A stretch of 63,896 nt of DNA, the filler included. It is 8 parts of 8 records of this genome, joined end to end, with 100 filler letters (N's around TTAATTAATTAA, not from the genome) between each part and the next. Parts side by side here need not be neighbours in the genome. Positions count along the whole stretch, not along the records: positions 44,562 to 51,779 come from SRR20825010_843; 7 more parts are not named here. One strand, given 5' to 3'. Positions 43,944 to 51,779 of this stretch are shown here, in pieces. The position numbers and the translations under genes were made by a program. Within the stretch, counting starts at the first letter, position 1, and each line of letters opens with the position of its first letter. The notes under the pieces are model-generated. The model ran no database searches. It was not told where the DNA came from and worked only from the letters and a program-made list of their open reading frames with translations.

Positions 43944-43978
43944 GCAGGTCGCCGGAAATGATCGGTTAGAACCCCACG

Positions 43979-44461
43979 ATAGGGGTAGGGAAGTCCGGTT
44001 GAGCCGGACTCCCCTCCCTCCGAACCGTGCGTGCGGTTCTCCCGCACACGGCTCTCCAGTCAGTGGGTCCCCTCAAGGGATTGAACGTAAGCTGAGTGAG
44101 CTAAACGCAGACTTCGATAGCCTCGCTCGCTGAAGTAGGCATTGGGCCAACGATGGGTGCGACACAGCCGCTTAGGATTGCGTCGATGACGCTTCAAGAG
44201 CTGACGTCGCAGTCGTTTGCGAACCATCCTGTCGTACTTGTCAAAGATGTTCCACGTACAGTGACGAAAGTAACTGAACCAACCCACCGTCACGCGATTG
44301 ATCTGGGCGATCGTCGCTTCCAGCGATTGGCCGCTCTTCCGGGACGTTAACCGTCGAATCGTGTCGACCATCTTTCGGTGACTCTTCGCTCGCGGAAATC
44401 GAAGCTTCCCGCGGAACGAATAACCTAGAAAGTCAAAACTCTTGACCCGACTGTCAACGAT
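43979..44461 (-). mobile_element. Group II intron, 3' portion (end of IEP ORF plus domains V and VI)
   Basis: Minus strand after the IEP stop reads GAGAGCCGTGTGCGGGAGAACCGCACGCACGGTTCGGAGGGAGGGGAGTCCGGCTCAACCGGACTTCCCTACCCCTAT: DV with AGC triad, DVI with bulged A, AY terminus at 43979. Confidence 0.92.
44060..44461 (-). CDS. ltrA: Group II intron reverse transcriptase/maturase, C-terminal fragment
   Basis: FDFLGYSF (RT7), domain X INRVTVGWFSYFRH, ends WPNAYFSERGYRSL; no endonuclease domain. Confidence 0.9.
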   Translation of the reverse strand: MVDSRVKSFDFLGYSFRGKLRFPRAKSHRKMVDTIRRLTSRKSGQSLEATIAQINRVTVGWFSYFRHCTWNIFDKYDRMVRKRLRRQLLKRHRRNPKRLCRTHRWPNAYFSERGYRSLRLAHSAYVQSLEGTH

Positions 44462-44658
44462 NNNNNNNNNNNNNNNNNNNNNNNNNNNNNNNNNNNNNNN
44501 NNNNNTTAATTAATTAANNNNNNNNNNNNNNNNNNNNNNNNNNNNNNNNNNNNNNNNNNNNGCTATATTTGTGTGTAGTACTAATTAAAAAAGTACTGAT
44601 AATACAAGTTTGGTACAAGCTGAAAACAAATTGTAACATTAATAAAAAATAGTAAAAA

Positions 44659-45204
44659 GTGAGAAAATTAAAACTTCAAATTCAACTCTCAATTGACGGA
44701 TTCATTTCCGGTCCGAGCGGAGAAATGGATTGGATGATTTGGAATTGGGATGAAGAACTAAAGAACTTCGTCAAAGAATTAACAGAATCAACTGACACCA
44801 TTGTTTTAGGACGAAAACTTGCTGAAGGATTTATTCCACATTGGAAATCCAACAATGAATTGGAAGGTGCTGAAAAAATTAATAACTCAAATAAAATAGT
44901 TTTCACAAAAACGCTCGAAAATACTGAATGGGAAAATACCCTTTTGGAAAAAGGAGATTTAGTCGAAAAAATAGAAAAATTGAAGTTATCAAATGGAAAT
45001 GATATAATTGCCTATGGAGGTGGCGAATTTGTTTCGTCACTAATAAAAGAAAATTTAATTGATGAATATTATTTTTTCATAAATCCTTCGATTTTGGGGA
45101 ATGGAATGCCAATATTTAAGAAAGCTAATTATAAAACTGAATTAAAATTGGAAAGTGCAAAAGCCTATGAATGTGGAATAACAGTACTGACCTATAAAAA
45201 GTAA
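44659..45204 (+). CDS. Dihydrofolate reductase-like (RibD C-terminal) protein
   Basis: SIDGFISGP, LGRK, YGGGEFV, LIDEY...PSILGNG. Confidence 0.88.
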   Translation: MRKLKLQIQLSIDGFISGPSGEMDWMIWNWDEELKNFVKELTESTDTIVLGRKLAEGFIPHWKSNNELEGAEKINNSNKIVFTKTLENTEWENTLLEKGDLVEKIEKLKLSNGNDIIAYGGGEFVSSLIKENLIDEYYFFINPSILGNGMPIFKKANYKTELKLESAKAYECGITVLTYKK

Positions 45205-45344
45205 AAGCCAGCTAAAGATGGCTATAAGTAATTGCTTATTCTCGCTTACTTCTGAAAATCCTCGCGGATTTTCAGCTTGGTGTGTACTTGCAAAGTTATG
45301 TGCTAACTTACGCAACTACTCATAGCCGAGACATTGTAAACAAT
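45205..45344. repeat. Structured intergenic repeat R1 (attC-like candidate)
   Basis: Outer arms GGCTATAAGTAATTGC (45220-45235) / GCAACTACTCATAGCC (45312-45327); perfect inner stem CTGAAAATCC-TCGC-GGATTTTCAG (45252-45275); homologous to R2 and R3. Confidence 0.85.
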
Positions 45345-45821
45345 ATGAAAAAAACGATATTCTTAATATTATCATTACTGATTTTCCAATTTGGAATTTC
45401 TCAAAACTTAACTGAATCTGATTTATTTGGAGAATGGAAGTTTATAGAATTGCAAGATGAGAATGGAGAAAAGCAAACTAAAATCCCTATGATAAGATTC
45501 GGAACAGATAGGGGAATTGAAAATGTGAATAGAGATAGTTATGTTTTCAATGAAGATGGAACATATAAAAGTTTTAATCCGTTCAATGTGTCATTTGGAA
45601 CTTGGTATTTTGACAAAATGACTCAAGAGATAAATTTAGAACTACAAATTGCACCTGATAGTCCATATTTGCCATCTCTGAAAAAAACAAAAATTGTAAA
45701 GAAAAGAAAAGACGGGTTTTATTATCAAAAACCTGTAAAGAAAAAAATATTGATTTATTCAAAAGATGGAATGACTATAGCAGATAGAGAAAAATACGTT
45801 TTAATTTACAAACGGAAGTAA
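45345..45821 (+). CDS. Secreted hypothetical protein (lipocalin-like GEWKF motif)
   Basis: ATG at 45345 directly after R1 gives signal peptide MKKTIFLILSLLIFQFGISQ; LFGEWKF. The ORF-track start 45282 lies inside R1. Confidence 0.75.
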   Translation: MKKTIFLILSLLIFQFGISQNLTESDLFGEWKFIELQDENGEKQTKIPMIRFGTDRGIENVNRDSYVFNEDGTYKSFNPFNVSFGTWYFDKMTQEINLELQIAPDSPYLPSLKKTKIVKKRKDGFYYQKPVKKKILIYSKDGMTIADREKYVLIYKRK

Positions 45822-45846
45822 ATACTGTCTACAACAAAGCACTGAA

Positions 45847-46041
45847 ATAAAAAATAACACAAAGTATACTTTATTTTTGGTTAGTGGAATCATAGTGTTT
45901 ATTTACACTATTATAAAACAAAGGATAAAAATTAAGAAGAAAGTTGAAGTTGCAGAAGCCAAAATTATTATAATCCTACTTTTAATTTCTACTTTTTTAG
46001 CCATTAGCTCGTTATATATTCCAGATTATTTAGTAAACTAA
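45847..46041 (+). pseudogene. 64-codon two-TM ORF beginning ATA (mutated or non-canonical start)
   Basis: Manual translation (I/M)KNNTKYTLFLVSGIIVFIYTIIKQRIKIKKKVEVAEAKIIIILLLISTFLAISSLYIPDYLVN*. Confidence 0.5.
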
Positions 46042-46115
46042 AACTAAATAGACGCTATTATTTACTCCCTATAATTTCATAACAGCTTTTAAAACCACAT
46101 TAATAAAAACTTAAA

Positions 46116-46946
46116 ATGAACGACTTAATAATCTTAGATATACTTTGGGATCGACAACTGGTAAAAGATAAATCAGGCAAAGAATTTGAAATTTTTAGAG
46201 GGAAAGATTACGACCACGACTGGGTACATTTAGGACATGGATATTCAAAAAATAAAGATTGGATTTATTTTTATCTCAACACTTGTTTTGAACAACATCT
46301 AAACAAGATTGATATTGCCAGCTTTATTTTAATTGAAGCAAATGAAGCTGAAAACACCGTTTATTTTAAAGATAAAAACGCTGTTTATCTAAAAAGCTAT
46401 ATGTGTGGTTTTGAAACCTTACCAAAAGTAAATCCAAACAACTTTTGCGTTATAGATATTGATAAAGGCTACTCAACTTCGGGGGAATTCGATTATTGGT
46501 ATGAATCTAAACTACCTTATTCCCTTCCTGAAATGACACCAATTAATGGATGTTACCAAAGAGTAGGAGACACTATATATTATGGTCATATCGTAAGAAT
46601 GACTTGTGATGTGGATACTTTTGAACAAGTTCACCCCAAAATTGATACACTTTTTAAAGATAAAAACCATCTCTATTTTAAAAATGAAATAGTAGAAGGA
46701 GCGAACCCAGCAACTTTTCATTTCTTAGAAGAATGTATAGGAAAGGATGCCCCATATTATTTAGAATGTGATATCCATTACTATGCTAAGGATGACAAAT
46801 ATGCCTATTTTGTAAATGAACCTTTTGGTATTAAAATAATTAAGACCAGAGATCTGGATAATTTTAGGTTTGAAGTGATAGATGAAATAGGGTATGGAAG
46901 AGACTCTAAATACAGATATGAAAAAGGGAAAAGAAAAAAAAATTGA
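46116..46946 (+). CDS. DKNYY-repeat family protein
   Basis: Repeated YFKDKNAVY / LFKDKNHLY / YAKDDKYAY units with ANPATF-type linkers. Confidence 0.8.
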   Translation: MNDLIILDILWDRQLVKDKSGKEFEIFRGKDYDHDWVHLGHGYSKNKDWIYFYLNTCFEQHLNKIDIASFILIEANEAENTVYFKDKNAVYLKSYMCGFETLPKVNPNNFCVIDIDKGYSTSGEFDYWYESKLPYSLPEMTPINGCYQRVGDTIYYGHIVRMTCDVDTFEQVHPKIDTLFKDKNHLYFKNEIVEGANPATFHFLEECIGKDAPYYLECDIHYYAKDDKYAYFVNEPFGIKIIKTRDLDNFRFEVIDEIGYGRDSKYRYEKGKRKKN

Positions 46947-46955
46947 AAAAAAAAT

Positions 46956-47095
46956 TAACTATTACTAACTCTGTATGTAATTTATTGCTAGCTTTCTAAC
47001 GAAAATCCTCGCGGATTTCCTATCTGGTTTTTAATCTGCTAAATTAGATACTTAAACAAACCACTAAGCATACATAATCACCTTGTGTGTAATTT
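46956..47095. repeat. Structured intergenic repeat R2
   Basis: Core GAAAATCCTCGCGGATTTCC (47001-47020); outer TGTATG...CATACA pairing; right half 45/50 identical to R3. Confidence 0.8.
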
Positions 47096-47121
47096 AAGCA
47101 AACAAACTAAAAACAAACTGA

Positions 47122-47553
47122 ATGGGAATATTTGAGAATCTATTTGGAAGTAAAAAGCTAAAAACGACTGACTCTGATTTTGGAGAAATCGAGAGCTTTA
47201 CCACGAGAGGAAGTGACGTTGGTTGGCAAGTGAATAAAAGATTTTTGAATTGTGATATTGAAATTTTAATCGCAGGAAATAAAGATGGAATATCTGAAAA
47301 CCAAAAGCGGATTTTACTCAATGCGCTGAATAACGAAATAGAAATAAAATCTGAATCGGAAAAAGCACTTAAAGAACAGTTTGAAAATGCAGGAATGGAA
47401 TTCGTTTCAATTGAAAAACACTTTAAACTGAAAGGAATATCAGTACTTGATGAAGGATTTGAAATGGCGTTTCAAGAAAAAGAAGGTGAAAACTACTTTT
47501 TCAATGTTCTTTTTGAGAATAATAAACAAGTTGGTGTTTCAGTAGATGGGTAA
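47122..47553 (+). CDS. Hypothetical protein
   Basis: MGIFENLFG start; acidic 143-aa ORF directly after R2. Confidence 0.75.
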   Translation: MGIFENLFGSKKLKTTDSDFGEIESFTTRGSDVGWQVNKRFLNCDIEILIAGNKDGISENQKRILLNALNNEIEIKSESEKALKEQFENAGMEFVSIEKHFKLKGISVLDEGFEMAFQEKEGENYFFNVLFENNKQVGVSVDG

Positions 47554-47764
47554 TTTGGACGTAAAACACTATTTAGGAATTTATACAATCCGAATGCAAA
47601 TGCAAAACGAAGGAATTACTAATCCTTCTGACGAAATAAAATTATTAACTAAAACCATCGTGGAGAAATTATCTAAATTACCTCTTACCGAAAAAATTGA
47701 ATTAGAGAATGGAAAAATGACCGATTCAAAAGGAAATGTAATTGTTGTTTTTCCAAGAAATTGA
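47546..47764 (+). CDS. Hypothetical protein (72 aa) overlapping the upstream stop
   Basis: ATGGGTAA overlap; ends directly before R3. Confidence 0.6.
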   Translation: MGNLDVKHYLGIYTIRMQMQNEGITNPSDEIKLLTKTIVEKLSKLPLTEKIELENGKMTDSKGNVIVVFPRN

Positions 47765-47771
47765 ACTAATA

Positions 47772-47918
47772 AAAACTAAAGACAACAATAGCTATAAGTA
47801 ATTGCTCGTTCATACCTACTTCTGAAAACCCTAGCGGATTTTCTATCTGGTTTATAATCTGCTACATTAGATTCTTAAACATGCCACTAAGCAAACACAA
47901 CAACATTAGGCATAATTT
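47772..47918. repeat. Structured intergenic repeat R3 (hybrid of R1-type left half and R2-type right half)
   Basis: 47791-47843 vs 45221-45273: 45/53 identical, ungapped; 47844-47893 vs 47021-47070: 45/50 identical, ungapped. Confidence 0.85.
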
Positions 47919-48104
47919 TAAAAAAGCCAGCCGCACATTTTAACACATTTGTTTTTTGCCAACGCTCTTTGCCAATTCTGAAAAACCAAAAGAGCTAAAA
48001 TCTCCCCACGCACGGAGGACGATAATAATTCAAACGGTTTTTATATTGAAAAACGAGATAATTAAACAATTAATATTATCTTGGCTGGATAATTTTAGAC
48101 GGAC

Positions 48105-48302
48105 ATGAACCGAATAAAGGAAGTACTCGAAGAGAAAGGTATTAAGCAGACTTGGTTGGCTGAAAAAATTGGCAAGAGTTACAACATGGTGAACGGATAT
48201 GTGCAGAATAGACAGCAACCAAGATTGGAAGTGCTTTATGAAATTGCAAAAATATTGGACGTGAATCCAAAGGATTTATTGAAAGAAGATTTGAATGACT
48301 AA
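48105..48302 (+). CDS. XRE-family HTH transcriptional regulator
   Basis: MNRIKEVLEEKGIKQTWLAEKIGKSYNMVNGYVQNRQQP; overlaps the hsdR start. Confidence 0.88.
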   Translation: MNRIKEVLEEKGIKQTWLAEKIGKSYNMVNGYVQNRQQPRLEVLYEIAKILDVNPKDLLKEDLND

Positions 48303-51297
48303 GGAACATCAAATAGAAGAAAATCTGATTGAGCAACTCAAAGAGCTCAAATACACCTACCGTTCTGATATTACGGACAGGAAAGCGCTTGAACAAAACT
48401 TCAAAACGAAATTTGAGGCATTGAACCGTGTACGCTTATCGGAGAGTGAATTTTTACGCTTACGAGAAGAAATTATCGAACCTGATGTTTTTGCTGCTTC
48501 TAAAAAACTTAGAGAAAGACAGTATTTTCAAAGAGAAGATGGAACTCCACTGCATTACACTTTGGTCAACATCAAAGATTGGTGTAAAAATGAATTTGAA
48601 GTCATCAGTCAATTACGCATCAATACAGAAAACAGCCATCAGAGGTATGACATCATTCTTCTTATTAATGGACTACCAGTAGTTCAAATTGAATTGAAGA
48701 AGCTGGATGTTTCACACCGTAAAGCCATGCAGCAAATTGTGGATTATAAAAATGATCCTGGCAATGGTTATACCAATACGTTGATGTGTTACATGCAGTT
48801 GTTCATTGTGAGCAATGGGTCAAGAACTATTTATTTCTCCAACAATAAGAATCAGCACTTTCAATTCAATGCAGATGAACAATTCCTACCTGTGTATGAA
48901 TTGGCAGATGTTGAGAACAAAAAAATCAATAACCTCAATCTTTTTGCTGAAAAGTTCCTTGCTAAGTGCACACTTGGCGAAATGATTAGTAAGTACATGG
49001 TATTAGTAGAAAGCGAACAGAAATTGCTCGTGATGCGACCATACCAAGTTTACGCTGTAAAAGCTATTGTGGATTGCATTAAGGATAATCGTGGAAACGG
49101 TTATATCTGGCACACCACAGGGAGTGGTAAAACGCTGACTTCATTTAAAGCCTCTACGCTACTAAAAGACAATGCGGATATTGAAAAATGTCTGTTTGTA
49201 GTTGACCGAAAAGACCTTGACCGTCAAACGCGTGAAGAGTTCAATAAATTTCAGGAAGGTAGTGTAGAAGAAAATACCAATACTGAAACCTTAGTAAGAC
49301 GATTACTTTCTACCGATTATGCTGACAAGGTAATTGTTACCACCATTCAAAAATTAGGCATTGCATTAGATAGCACCTACAAGAAAAACTACAAAGAGCG
49401 TTTAGAGCCGTTGAGCGACAAACGAATCGTTTTCATTTTTGACGAGTGCCACCGTTCACAGTTTGGTGAAAATCATAAAGCGATAAAAGAGTTCTTCCCC
49501 AATGCACAATTGTTTGGATTTACAGGAACGCCCATTTTTGAGCAAAATGCCACTTATAGACAAATAACAGGTGAAGAAGAAACATTAAAAACCACAGACG
49601 CCATTTTTGAAAAGCAGTTGCACGCTTATACCATTACACATGCCATAGATGATAGAAACGTGCTTAAGTTTCATATTGACTATTTTAAGGGTGAAGGAAC
49701 TGTAAATGCTAAACCAGGAGAAGCAATTGCCCAACAAGCCGTTGCAGAAGCGATTATCGACAAACACAATGCAGCTACCAATCAACGCAAATTCAATGCG
49801 GTGTTGGCAACTGCCTCTATCAATAATGCCATTGAATACTTTCGTTTGTTCAAAACCATTCAGGAACGAAAGAAAAGTGAGGATGAAGATTATGTTCCGC
49901 TCAATATCGCTTGTGTATTTTCTCCACCCGCTCAGTTAATTGCACAGAATGGTGACCAACAAAGCCAAAAAAATGCTGCTGACATTAAGCAGCTTCAGGA
50001 AGATTTAGCGCAGGAGAAAGAAGACAACAAGCAAAATCCTGAAGAGAAGAAACAAGCCCTGATAGAAATCATAGCCGATTATAACCAACAGTTTGGCACC
50101 AATCACGACATCAATAATTTTGATATCTACTATCAGGATATTCAAAGACGCATCAAAGACCAGAAATTCACCAATAAGGACTATCCGCACAAAAACAAAA
50201 TTGATATCACCATAGTGGTAGATATGTTGCTCACAGGTTTTGATTCCAAATACTTGAATACGCTGTATGTGGACAAGAACCTGAAATACCACGGATTGAT
50301 TCAGGCATTTTCACGAACCAATCGGGTATTGAACGACACCAAGCCTTACGGGAATGTACTCGATTTCCGTTCGCAACAAGAAGCAGTAAATCAAGCCATA
50401 ACCCTCTTTTCTGGTGAAGATGGAGGCAAAGCCAAAGAAATTTGGATGGTGGATCCTGCTCCAGTGGTGATTGACCAATACCAAAAGGCAGTGGAAGCTT
50501 TAGGCGATTTTATGAAAGAACACAACTTGGTAAATGAACCTCAAGAAGTGTACAATCTGCGTGGTGATGCTGCGAAGGTTGCTTTCGTAAAAAACTTTAA
50601 GGAAGTGCAACGCCTAAAAACCCAACTCGACCAATACACCGATTTAGATGAAAAGCAGCAAGAAGCTATTGAAGCCATTCTACCGAAAGACAATTTACAA
50701 GAGTTTAGAAGCTCGTACTTAGAAACCGCCAAGCAACTACGTGAGATACAGCAAAAAGAAGGTGGTGGTGCACCCGAAGACATTCAACAATTAGATTTTG
50801 AGTTTGTACTCTTCGCTTCTGCGGTGATTGACTACGATTACATCATGAGCCTGATTGCCGACAGCACACAACAAAAGCCATCTAAACAAAAAATGTCCAA
50901 ATCTCAGGTGATTAGTTTGCTTAAATCCAACTCTAACCTAATGGAAGAAGAGGAAGACTTGACAGACTATATCAACAGTTTGGATTGGGAAAGTGGAAAA
51001 GATGTAGATGCACTCCGCCAAGGTTATGAAATCTTCAGAGTCGAGAAATACGACAAAGAGTTGGCTAAGATTGCAGGCGACCATGGATTGCAAACAGCGT
51101 CCTTAAAAGCCTTTGTAGAGAAGATTATGAACCGAATGATTTTTGACGGAGAAAAGCTCACTGACCTGATGGAACCCTTGGAACTGGGTTGGAAACAACG
51201 TAGTAAAGCAGAAATAGCCTTGATGCAGGACTTGGCACCCCAATTAAAAAAGCTTGCCCAAGGGCGTGAAATTTCAGGATTAGCAGCGTATGAGTAA
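48295..51297 (+). CDS. hsdR: Type I restriction endonuclease subunit R
   Basis: YDIILLINGLPVVQIELKK nuclease motif, HTTGSGKT, DECHR, GFTGTP, MLLTGFD, QAFSRTNR. Confidence 0.95.
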   Translation: MTKEHQIEENLIEQLKELKYTYRSDITDRKALEQNFKTKFEALNRVRLSESEFLRLREEIIEPDVFAASKKLRERQYFQREDGTPLHYTLVNIKDWCKNEFEVISQLRINTENSHQRYDIILLINGLPVVQIELKKLDVSHRKAMQQIVDYKNDPGNGYTNTLMCYMQLFIVSNGSRTIYFSNNKNQHFQFNADEQFLPVYELADVENKKINNLNLFAEKFLAKCTLGEMISKYMVLVESEQKLLVMRPYQVYAVKAIVDCIKDNRGNGYIWHTTGSGKTLTSFKASTLLKDNADIEKCLFVVDRKDLDRQTREEFNKFQEGSVEENTNTETLVRRLLSTDYADKVIVTTIQKLGIALDSTYKKNYKERLEPLSDKRIVFIFDECHRSQFGENHKAIKEFFPNAQLFGFTGTPIFEQNATYRQITGEEETLKTTDAIFEKQLHAYTITHAIDDRNVLKFHIDYFKGEGTVNAKPGEAIAQQAVAEAIIDKHNAATNQRKFNAVLATASINNAIEYFRLFKTIQERKKSEDEDYVPLNIACVFSPPAQLIAQNGDQQSQKNAADIKQLQEDLAQEKEDNKQNPEEKKQALIEIIADYNQQFGTNHDINNFDIYYQDIQRRIKDQKFTNKDYPHKNKIDITIVVDMLLTGFDSKYLNTLYVDKNLKYHGLIQAFSRTNRVLNDTKPYGNVLDFRSQQEAVNQAITLFSGEDGGKAKEIWMVDPAPVVIDQYQKAVEALGDFMKEHNLVNEPQEVYNLRGDAAKVAFVKNFKEVQRLKTQLDQYTDLDEKQQEAIEAILPKDNLQEFRSSYLETAKQLREIQQKEGGGAPEDIQQLDFEFVLFASAVIDYDYIMSLIADSTQQKPSKQKMSKSQVISLLKSNSNLMEEEEDLTDYINSLDWESGKDVDALRQGYEIFRVEKYDKELAKIAGDHGLQTASLKAFVEKIMNRMIFDGEKLTDLMEPLELGWKQRSKAEIALMQDLAPQLKKLAQGREISGLAAYE

Positions 51298-51779
51298 GGA
51301 TAAATTAATACCAGAGTTACGTTTTCCTGAGTTTGAGAAGGCTGATAGATGGAAAGAAAATGACATAGGAAAGCTATTCAAATTTAAACAAGGTGTTCAA
51401 GTTGCTGTTGAAAATCAATATCCCATTCAAAAAGACGGGATGGTTCGTTTTATTAGAATAATTGACATTACAAGCGATTCAGAAGCACCTAGATATATTG
51501 AAAATCCTGGTCAAGATCATCTAATCGAAAAGAATGACCTTTTCATGATTAGATATGGGACTCCTGGTTTAATCTCTATGGGTTTTAGTGGTGTAATTGC
51601 AAATAACCTTTTTCGATTAATTTGGAATAATGGCCAACATTTTGTTGCAGAATATTGGTTTTACTCATTTCAAAATTTAGAGAAAACCGTCTATAATTTA
51701 TCGGGTTCGTCTTCAATGCCTGCTATTAGTTTTTCTACTCTAGACAATCTGAATGTTCGTTTTCCAAATAATCCCCAAG
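51290..51779 (+). CDS. hsdS: Type I R-M specificity subunit S (3'-truncated)
   Basis: PELRFPEF start, TRD-like region, GSSSMPAI; overlaps the hsdR stop. Confidence 0.88.

Follow-up and report, generated by a model that had tools for sequence, protein, structure and literature searches.

The window analysed here is a stretch of 63,896 nucleotides (nt) in which unrelated contigs are concatenated, and the subject of this report is one of these contigs (positions 44562-51779, SRR20825010_843), which carries a run of open reading frames (ORFs), all on the + strand, separated by three homologous repeats, R1, R2 and R3. The first-pass annotation had read this arrangement as an integron-like gene-cassette array, and our analysis found R1, R2 and R3 where it had placed them, with the central palindrome, outer stems and right-end motif that it described. 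The coupling of repeats to gene ends was also as reported, with stop codons ending at 45204, 46946 and 47764, just 5′ of R1, R2 and R3, and with the next ATG lying directly after R1 (45345) and 26 nt after R2 (47122). The array part of the contig has a GC content of ~30% (0.29-0.32 at 45-48 kb). Searches with Pfam confirmed the genes called DHFR-like (RibD_C, 1e-25) and DKNYY (4e-23), whereas the gene called lipocalin-like gave only a weak match (7e-4, below the cut-off); the ORFs of 54, 143 and 72 amino acids (aa) matched no family confidently, and Pfam found no immunity family among the nine window ORFs. We conclude, with a probability of roughly 0.75, that this region is a decayed stretch of an integron-like cassette array of the Bacteroidota, whose circular cassettes would be recombined through a folded bottom strand by an enzyme without the I2 helix of integron integrases (IntI).

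The repeats belong to a widespread family of sites. Chance does not account for the repeats, as their exact 20-nt core occurs in GTDB genomes in at least 144 stretches; among the matches listed 73 of 74 loci are from Bacteroidota, mostly Flavobacteriaceae, frequently with several copies. In related loci nearly every gap in a run of co-oriented genes carries a site with AAC...GTT ends and one of several unrelated middles, and a detector of such ends identified 3-45 sense sites per locus, with 0-3 antisense sites and 0-2 in shuffled sequence (12 loci). Most sites (248/325) are 120-129 nt long, such that a cassette appears to consist of one gene or operon plus a site of ~122 nt. We extracted 147 family copies, of which 123 could be scored for the right end, and 121 of these end in GTT. 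Among sites picked by the central motif only, the bottom strand is the more stable in 78 of 79, and for 77 of 78 the best pairing of the 17-bp outer stem has no bulge, i.e., extrahelical bases of the kind found in attC sites are lacking. Top-strand mismatches in these motif-picked sites are nearly all A.C (184, vs 2 G.T, in 1326 positions), and G-T pairs therefore form on the bottom strand. In an alignment of 34 sites, 13 of 20 stem pairs covary (0/500 shuffles) and 94% of cells pair, vs 29-48% in slid controls, with 31 of the 34 rows coming from a stem-rewarding detector that favours the covariation result. The family thus combines AAC/GTT cores with predicted folding on the bottom strand, as expected of integron sites.

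A trace of cassette movement lies in the cassette ends. Across 225 adjacent site pairs from 43 loci, the hexamer that follows GTT is fully complementary to the left end of the next site in 162, whereas the same test yielded 2 of 225 for a cassette's own preceding site and 3.9 for permuted partners. When the largest array was removed, at least five bases matched the next site in 146 of 182 pairs and the own site in 12. Complementarity to the next site is the mark that circular cassettes leave when they insert at G|TT: the first six bases of each cassette complement its own last six, which in a circular form would close a long stem; cassettes bounded by G|TT with complementary ends of their own are what is expected of integrons. 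Cassettes also recur in new contexts. For example, the DHFR-like cassette of the window has homologs of 93% and 89% aa identity in 2 of 251 genomes, lying between different sites, and the 143-aa ORF has a homolog of 80% aa identity behind a different site in a Persicobacter plasmid array, where DNA identity begins at TT and the second ORF is different.

Several observations on individual arrays accompany these results. The complete genome of Formosa A9 (G001) contains 50 matches to the site model, 31 of them after its single family recombinase, 15 in three clusters without a recombinase and 4 single or inverted. The Persicobacter psychrovividus plasmid pPP2 (L139) carries 45 sites in 40 kb, and two cassette types without annotated genes recur there many times among gene cassettes. 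In a Chryseobacterium plasmid (L179:14284-18692), sites are interrupted at their left AAC core by an IS110 element and a group II intron, both annotated and both in antisense orientation; classical attC sites have comparable inserted parasites. We do not claim group II introns for the GTGCC/GTGCG ends in L013, L041, L113 and L124, where the register differs from that of the annotated L179 intron.

A tyrosine recombinase heads the related arrays. Five array-bearing genomes were searched with PF00589, and in four of them an enzyme of 375-397 aa lies directly upstream of, and co-oriented with, the cassettes, followed by an attI-like GTT whose 3′ flank matches the first site. The enzyme of the fifth genome (L149) is oriented away from its array and has an attI-like end upstream of it. 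Selecting loci by the enzyme, and counting only those with at least 1 kb downstream, we observed an attI-like GTT with a matching first cassette in 16 of 36 loci and a site only in 3 of 36, a divergent site behind the enzyme being present in only 1 of 36, whereas 0 of 9 Xer-like loci and 0 of 12 IntI loci contained an attI with such a first cassette. The attI-like end is located 27-155 nt past the recombinase stop codon in 22 loci. By these positions, the arrays start from an attI-like end that is preceded, in the same orientation, by a tyrosine recombinase of 350-400 aa with intact catalytic residues, i.e., the integron arrangement of an attI next to the integrase gene, attI-like being a designation by sequence.

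Examination of 32 aligned members showed the catalytic R, K, HxxR, H and Y to be invariant, with a spacing from R to HxxR of 91-92 aa, compared with 94-98 in XerC/D and 133 in IntI. The IntI profile TIGR02249 matches in two separate pieces (189-219 bits, cut-off 265), and the array recombinases show a gap when aligned with the structure 2a3v, so that the enzyme of the related arrays lacks the I2 insertion that defines IntI. The best NCBIfam match is NF040815, the closest structures are XerA, and all 32 enzymes contain a Phage_int_SAM_4 domain. A structure model (mean predicted local distance difference test score 87) has an extra N-terminal domain; folded alone, its top matches are UvsW-N, XPB-DRD and the SMARCAL1 HARP domain, all weak. 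Pfam HARP matches 1 of the 32 members, and a profile of the domain retrieved no solved sequence relative. SOS boxes are not enriched upstream of the recombinase (1/54 vs 0.8 expected). The same genomes have separate XerC and XerD genes, which form their own branch (support 100) and are without arrays. Our recombinase tree is a quick version whose deep branches are weak, and for this reason we draw no order of events from it; it omits four rows whose class was unclear and those in which no motif could be parsed. The TIGR02249 cut-off was not exceeded in any of 151 Flavobacteriaceae genomes; in a phylum-wide sample of 151 genomes, 50 contained true IntI, sometimes co-oriented with its own array of canonical attC sites (L215-L226), which rules out the description of the phylum as integron-free.

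The features of the window contig are listed in Table 1. The ends of the window repeats had been taken as non-canonical; since 121 of 123 family copies end in GTT, the cores ATT, CTT and ATT, and the missing AAC of R1, represent decay, and the sites are probably immobile. These damaged cores are also why our strict AAC...GTT detector returned zero sites in the window. R1 alone folds better than shuffles (z -4.1 / -4.8), on the bottom strand, while the stem of R2 has several mismatches and that of R3 is decayed. Cassette 1 is decayed at both ends relative to homologous cassettes, and the 5′ hexamer matches the own 3′ left arm at 5 of 6 positions in cassette 2 and 4 of 6 in the two-ORF cassette, compared with 1 of 6 for the own (preceding) site at R2 and R3. 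A truncated fourth site, R1b, is interrupted by sequence that one of the sequencing runs contains in repeated form, and we found no right arm for it; left arms interrupted in this way also occur in L018 and L214/L252. The DKNYY cassette possibly begins at 46030-39, where a weak match (5/6) is present. A leader motif 3′ of R3 (47925-37) opens two cassettes of 3.7-4.9 kb elsewhere, each with a 6/6 end match, and because these two long cassettes begin with the leader that follows R3, the restriction-modification operon after R3 is probably cassette cargo; cassettes of 3.5-4.9 kb exist in related arrays.

Table 1. Features of the array-bearing contig, in coordinates of the window
Feature	Position	Strand	Description
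attI-like/promoter-bearing end	44562-44610	+	Multi-copy in the source community; contains TATATTTG (44564-71), palindrome AGTACT-N9-AGTACT (44577-97) and GTT (44608-10)
Cassette 1	44609-45333	+	RibD_C/DHFR-like ORF (44659-45204) and R1
R1, attC-like site	45205-45344	-	Central palindrome 45254-45273; left AAC core deleted, right core ATT; putative crossover 45333|45334
Cassette 2	45334-45835	+	158-aa secreted (lipocalin-like) ORF (45345-45821)
R1b, truncated fourth site	45824-45861	+	Left arm only (45824-45835), AAC core 45833-35
54-aa hydrophobic ORF	45877-46041	+	No Pfam family
DKNYY-family ORF	46116-46946	+	Cargo of the cassette ending in R2
R2, attC-like site	46956-47095	-	Palindrome 47001-47020; left AAC intact, right core CTT; putative crossover 47082|47083
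Two-ORF cassette	47083-47905	+	143 aa (47122-47553) and 72 aa (47546-47764), plus R3
R3, attC-like site	47775-47918	-	Palindrome 47824-47843; left AAC intact, right core ATT; putative crossover 47905|47906
Probable long cassette cut by the contig end	47906-51779	+	Helix-turn-helix gene (48105-48302), type I hsdR (48295-51297), hsdS (51290-end) by Pfam

The contig had been thought to start inside the array, but its first 49 nt form an attI-like, promoter-bearing end that is not clearly array interior. Its motif TATATTTG fits the Bacteroidota -7 box (TAnnTTTG). We compared four sequencing runs from two studies, possibly with the window's own sample among them; runs whose word share was small were not used. 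In three of the four this end has a depth ~5-6 times that of unique DNA, and other contigs match it exactly as far as the GTT and terminate in sites of the R1 or R3 type. The end fits the 22 attI-like ends only loosely, a similar one precedes the DHFR homolog in L211, and its pattern was not found in 401 Flavobacteriaceae genomes, JGI metagenome contigs or our study loci, plasmids giving chance matches only. The window array may accordingly be an array head or a satellite array. Inside the arrays of L252 (G030:C2) and L249 (G001), the right halves of sites are replaced by a multi-copy module, 150-200 nt long, which combines a promoter-like motif with an attI-like end; the start of the window contig may be an element of this type. 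The unrelated contig preceding it ends in what looks like a fragment of a group II intron reverse transcriptase (43970-44461) after a sulfatase gene.

Taken together, the checks that the first-pass annotation had proposed came out in favour of a cassette array: copies are grouped in arrays in which each ORF or operon has its own site, the same cassette lies between different sites in different genomes, a recombinase is linked to related arrays, and Rfam, which includes the Flavo-1 motif, gave zero matches at gathering score in the window contig or in four related array loci. Borders at G|TT, end complementarity, strand asymmetry, enzyme linkage and the absence of I2 are supported by sequence statistics. 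In the mechanism that we propose, the recombinase, acting in cis or in trans, would excise cassettes as circles, which would be inserted at attI by cutting of the folded bottom strand in AAC, with one strand exchange and resolution by replication, by analogy with integrons. A single exchange fits better than an Xer-type double exchange, because the free hexamer leaves only the triplet shared. Strand choice would depend on G-T wobble pairs and on spacer asymmetry (3 vs 5-6 nt), not on extrahelical bases, and the lack of such bases matches the absence of I2, the element that docks them in the portions of the structural literature compared (PMC3053210, PMC7790495). More speculatively, the HARP-like N-terminal domain as modelled could bind the junction of single- and double-stranded DNA.

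A number of points weigh against this interpretation. The platform is known here from sequence footprints, from which recombination, circles and cleavage are inferred. No recombinase gene was seen in the window contig, the recombinase evidence coming from related arrays only, and no backward joint of the type left by a circle was found among contigs of the compared runs, where assembly into contigs drops rare variants. R2 and R3 fold no better than shuffles (z about -1), and the origin of most aligned rows in a stem-rewarding detector tempers the covariation. The hexamer after GTT (44611-44616 in the window) differs in all three copies of the DHFR cassette (window, L211 and L212), a difference that crossover strictly at G|TT does not account for, and it matches its own left arm fully only in L211, not in the window. 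Of the 36 recombinase loci, 17 had no site in the 1.0-1.5 kb downstream, and certain members of the family may act for other elements, for instance IS91. The N-terminal fold matches are low (Z 6.4-6.8, all below 8; UvsW Z 6.8, root-mean-square deviation 2.1 over 63 residues; XPB Z 6.8; SMARCAL1 HARP Foldseek E 0.024).

Three other explanations were weighed. The same platform and enzyme could recombine double-stranded DNA in the manner of Xer, with two strand exchanges, the hairpin being a terminator, an RNA-processing signal or a cruciform. An enzyme without I2, which the literature, in the parts compared, ties to single-strand recombination, would suit such a pathway, as would sites without extrahelical bases and XerA as closest structure. 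We nevertheless consider it improbable, since the hexamer beyond GTT varies freely between neighbours, leaving a shared homology of three bases as in the single-exchange pathway of IntI, since the conserved G-T pairs form on the bottom strand and not on the one that is transcribed, and since no T-run follows the stem. It is very unlikely that the repeats are a family of miniature inverted-repeat transposable elements, repetitive extragenic palindromes or non-coding RNAs between which homologous recombination has moved cargo: solo copies and recombinase-less clusters do occur (19 of the 50 sites in G001), and one subfamily is highly conserved in sequence, but copies are fixed in orientation after stop codons, unrelated middles share ends only, Rfam holds no match, and the end complement is to the next site and not a target duplication, which largely refutes the idea. 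Scarcely credible, finally, is that these are ordinary attC sites (clusters of attC lacking an integrase, CALIN), either recombined in trans by a true IntI or left over from one, because, for all the AAC/GTT cores, the attC-like bottom-strand bias, the IntI genes elsewhere in the phylum (50/151 genomes) and a score of 44.5 bits (E 6e-8) for the veb1 attC of class 1 integrons with our site model, the Flavobacteriaceae genomes (0/151 above the TIGR02249 cut-off) and the complete, array-bearing G001 are without IntI, the attI-like start adjoins the I2-less enzyme, and the site model has no match in six true-integron loci.

Family recombinases were also observed beside resistance genes in Proteobacteria, where truncated forms lie directly before tet(X3) and blaVEB-3 on plasmids. 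In an Acinetobacter indicus plasmid (L180:4052-6221), tet(X3) follows an N-terminally truncated family recombinase and an attI-like end, with the left half of a site, to which the site model gives no score, 3′ of the gene; tet(X3) there looks like a first-position cassette. Likewise, blaVEB-3 is located behind a truncated family recombinase and an attI-like end in L230:4145-5766 and L248:3429-3575. The veb1 attC is described as a poor IntI1 substrate in the sections compared of PMC3518468.

The closest described relative of these arrays is rAID-1 of the Bacteroidales, and the recombinases and footprints compared below lead us to regard the present platform as integron-like and homologous to it. 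In the portions of text compared (10.1101/471110 [Ross et al.]; 10.1101/2025.05.03.651265), rAID-1 is reported from Bacteroidales alone: an XerD-like recombinase stands at the 5′ end of each array of orphan immunity genes, the low-GC ORFs share one orientation, and motifs repeated between them are called "reminiscent of integrons", while those portions give no cassette borders or mechanism; its criteria are a recombinase >44% identical to BF9343_RS08045 and at least two co-oriented downstream genes with GC <=41%. The window has such co-oriented ORFs at a GC of 0.29-0.32, but no orphan-immunity cargo by Pfam, its closest relatives being Flavobacteriaceae, whose arrays carry mixed cargo, unlike rAID-1. 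Using a Parabacteroides distasonis cluster (L178) as proxy, we found the same 91-aa spacing, a recombinase that the quick tree places within those of the arrays and that is up to 50-55% identical to them over the core, and the end-complement footprint in 6 of 7 cassettes. Array recombinases are 32-55% identical to the proxy WP_004316061.1 (L152, 50% over 271 aa; L148, 37%). The rAID-like sites are short (~50 nt), end in ATT and have at most weak site-model scores, whereas those of Flavobacteriaceae are mostly 120-129 nt. The proposal that the repeats form a site family of their own thus stands, while that of a new, undescribed platform holds only in part, given the kinship with rAID-1, and the sites keep the AAC/GTT triplets of attC. 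We found no published account of these Flavobacteriaceae arrays or their site anatomy, in a search that left subscription journals mostly outside its coverage, and none stands in the parts compared of PMC8138268, PMC3414803, PMC9024848, PMC8618304, PMC8565304, PMC5027507, PMC11194056, PMC9366087, PMC4889954 and PMC3518468.

The window itself is only one more, decayed example of this platform, but the arrays as a whole give the rAID-1 of gut Bacteroides a concrete, proposed mechanism and cassette borders, and represent a large mobile gene pool, a single genome having as many as 50 sites, which tools built on IntI would fail to connect with an integrase. IntegronFinder-type surveys, in the portions compared, report almost no integrons in the Bacteroidetes proper. 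With integrons, including sedentary integrons and CALIN, the arrays share cassette organisation, AAC/GTT cores, G|TT borders, an attI-like first site, a bottom-strand bias with G-T pairs and the Phage_int_SAM_4 domain. They differ in the absence of I2 and of an extrahelical stem base, in a free hexamer instead of RYYY/RRRY, in a near-fixed site length, in the extra N-terminal domain and in the lack of SOS box enrichment, and, with I2 and extrahelical bases both absent, they are not integrons by definition. XerA, XerC/XerD and IS91-associated tyrosine recombinases share the catalytic fold without the insertion, and the XerC/XerD of these genomes are separate genes on their own branch, without arrays. 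In the literature as far as compared, the I2 helix is held to have enabled single-strand cassette recombination, with no intermediates known; the present arrays lack I2 yet carry all the sequence footprints of cassette shuffling, so that the view of I2 as necessary becomes directly testable. A broader proposition, for which we see the odds as even, is that they represent a second class of integron in Bacteroidota, with an I2-less enzyme, folded single-stranded sites without extrahelical bases and a HARP-like junction-binding domain instead, which would account for the mechanism of rAID-1 and be a source of cassettes later present in Proteobacteria (the veb1 and tet(X3) contexts); if so, this second class would be the natural intermediate between Xer-like enzymes and IntI.

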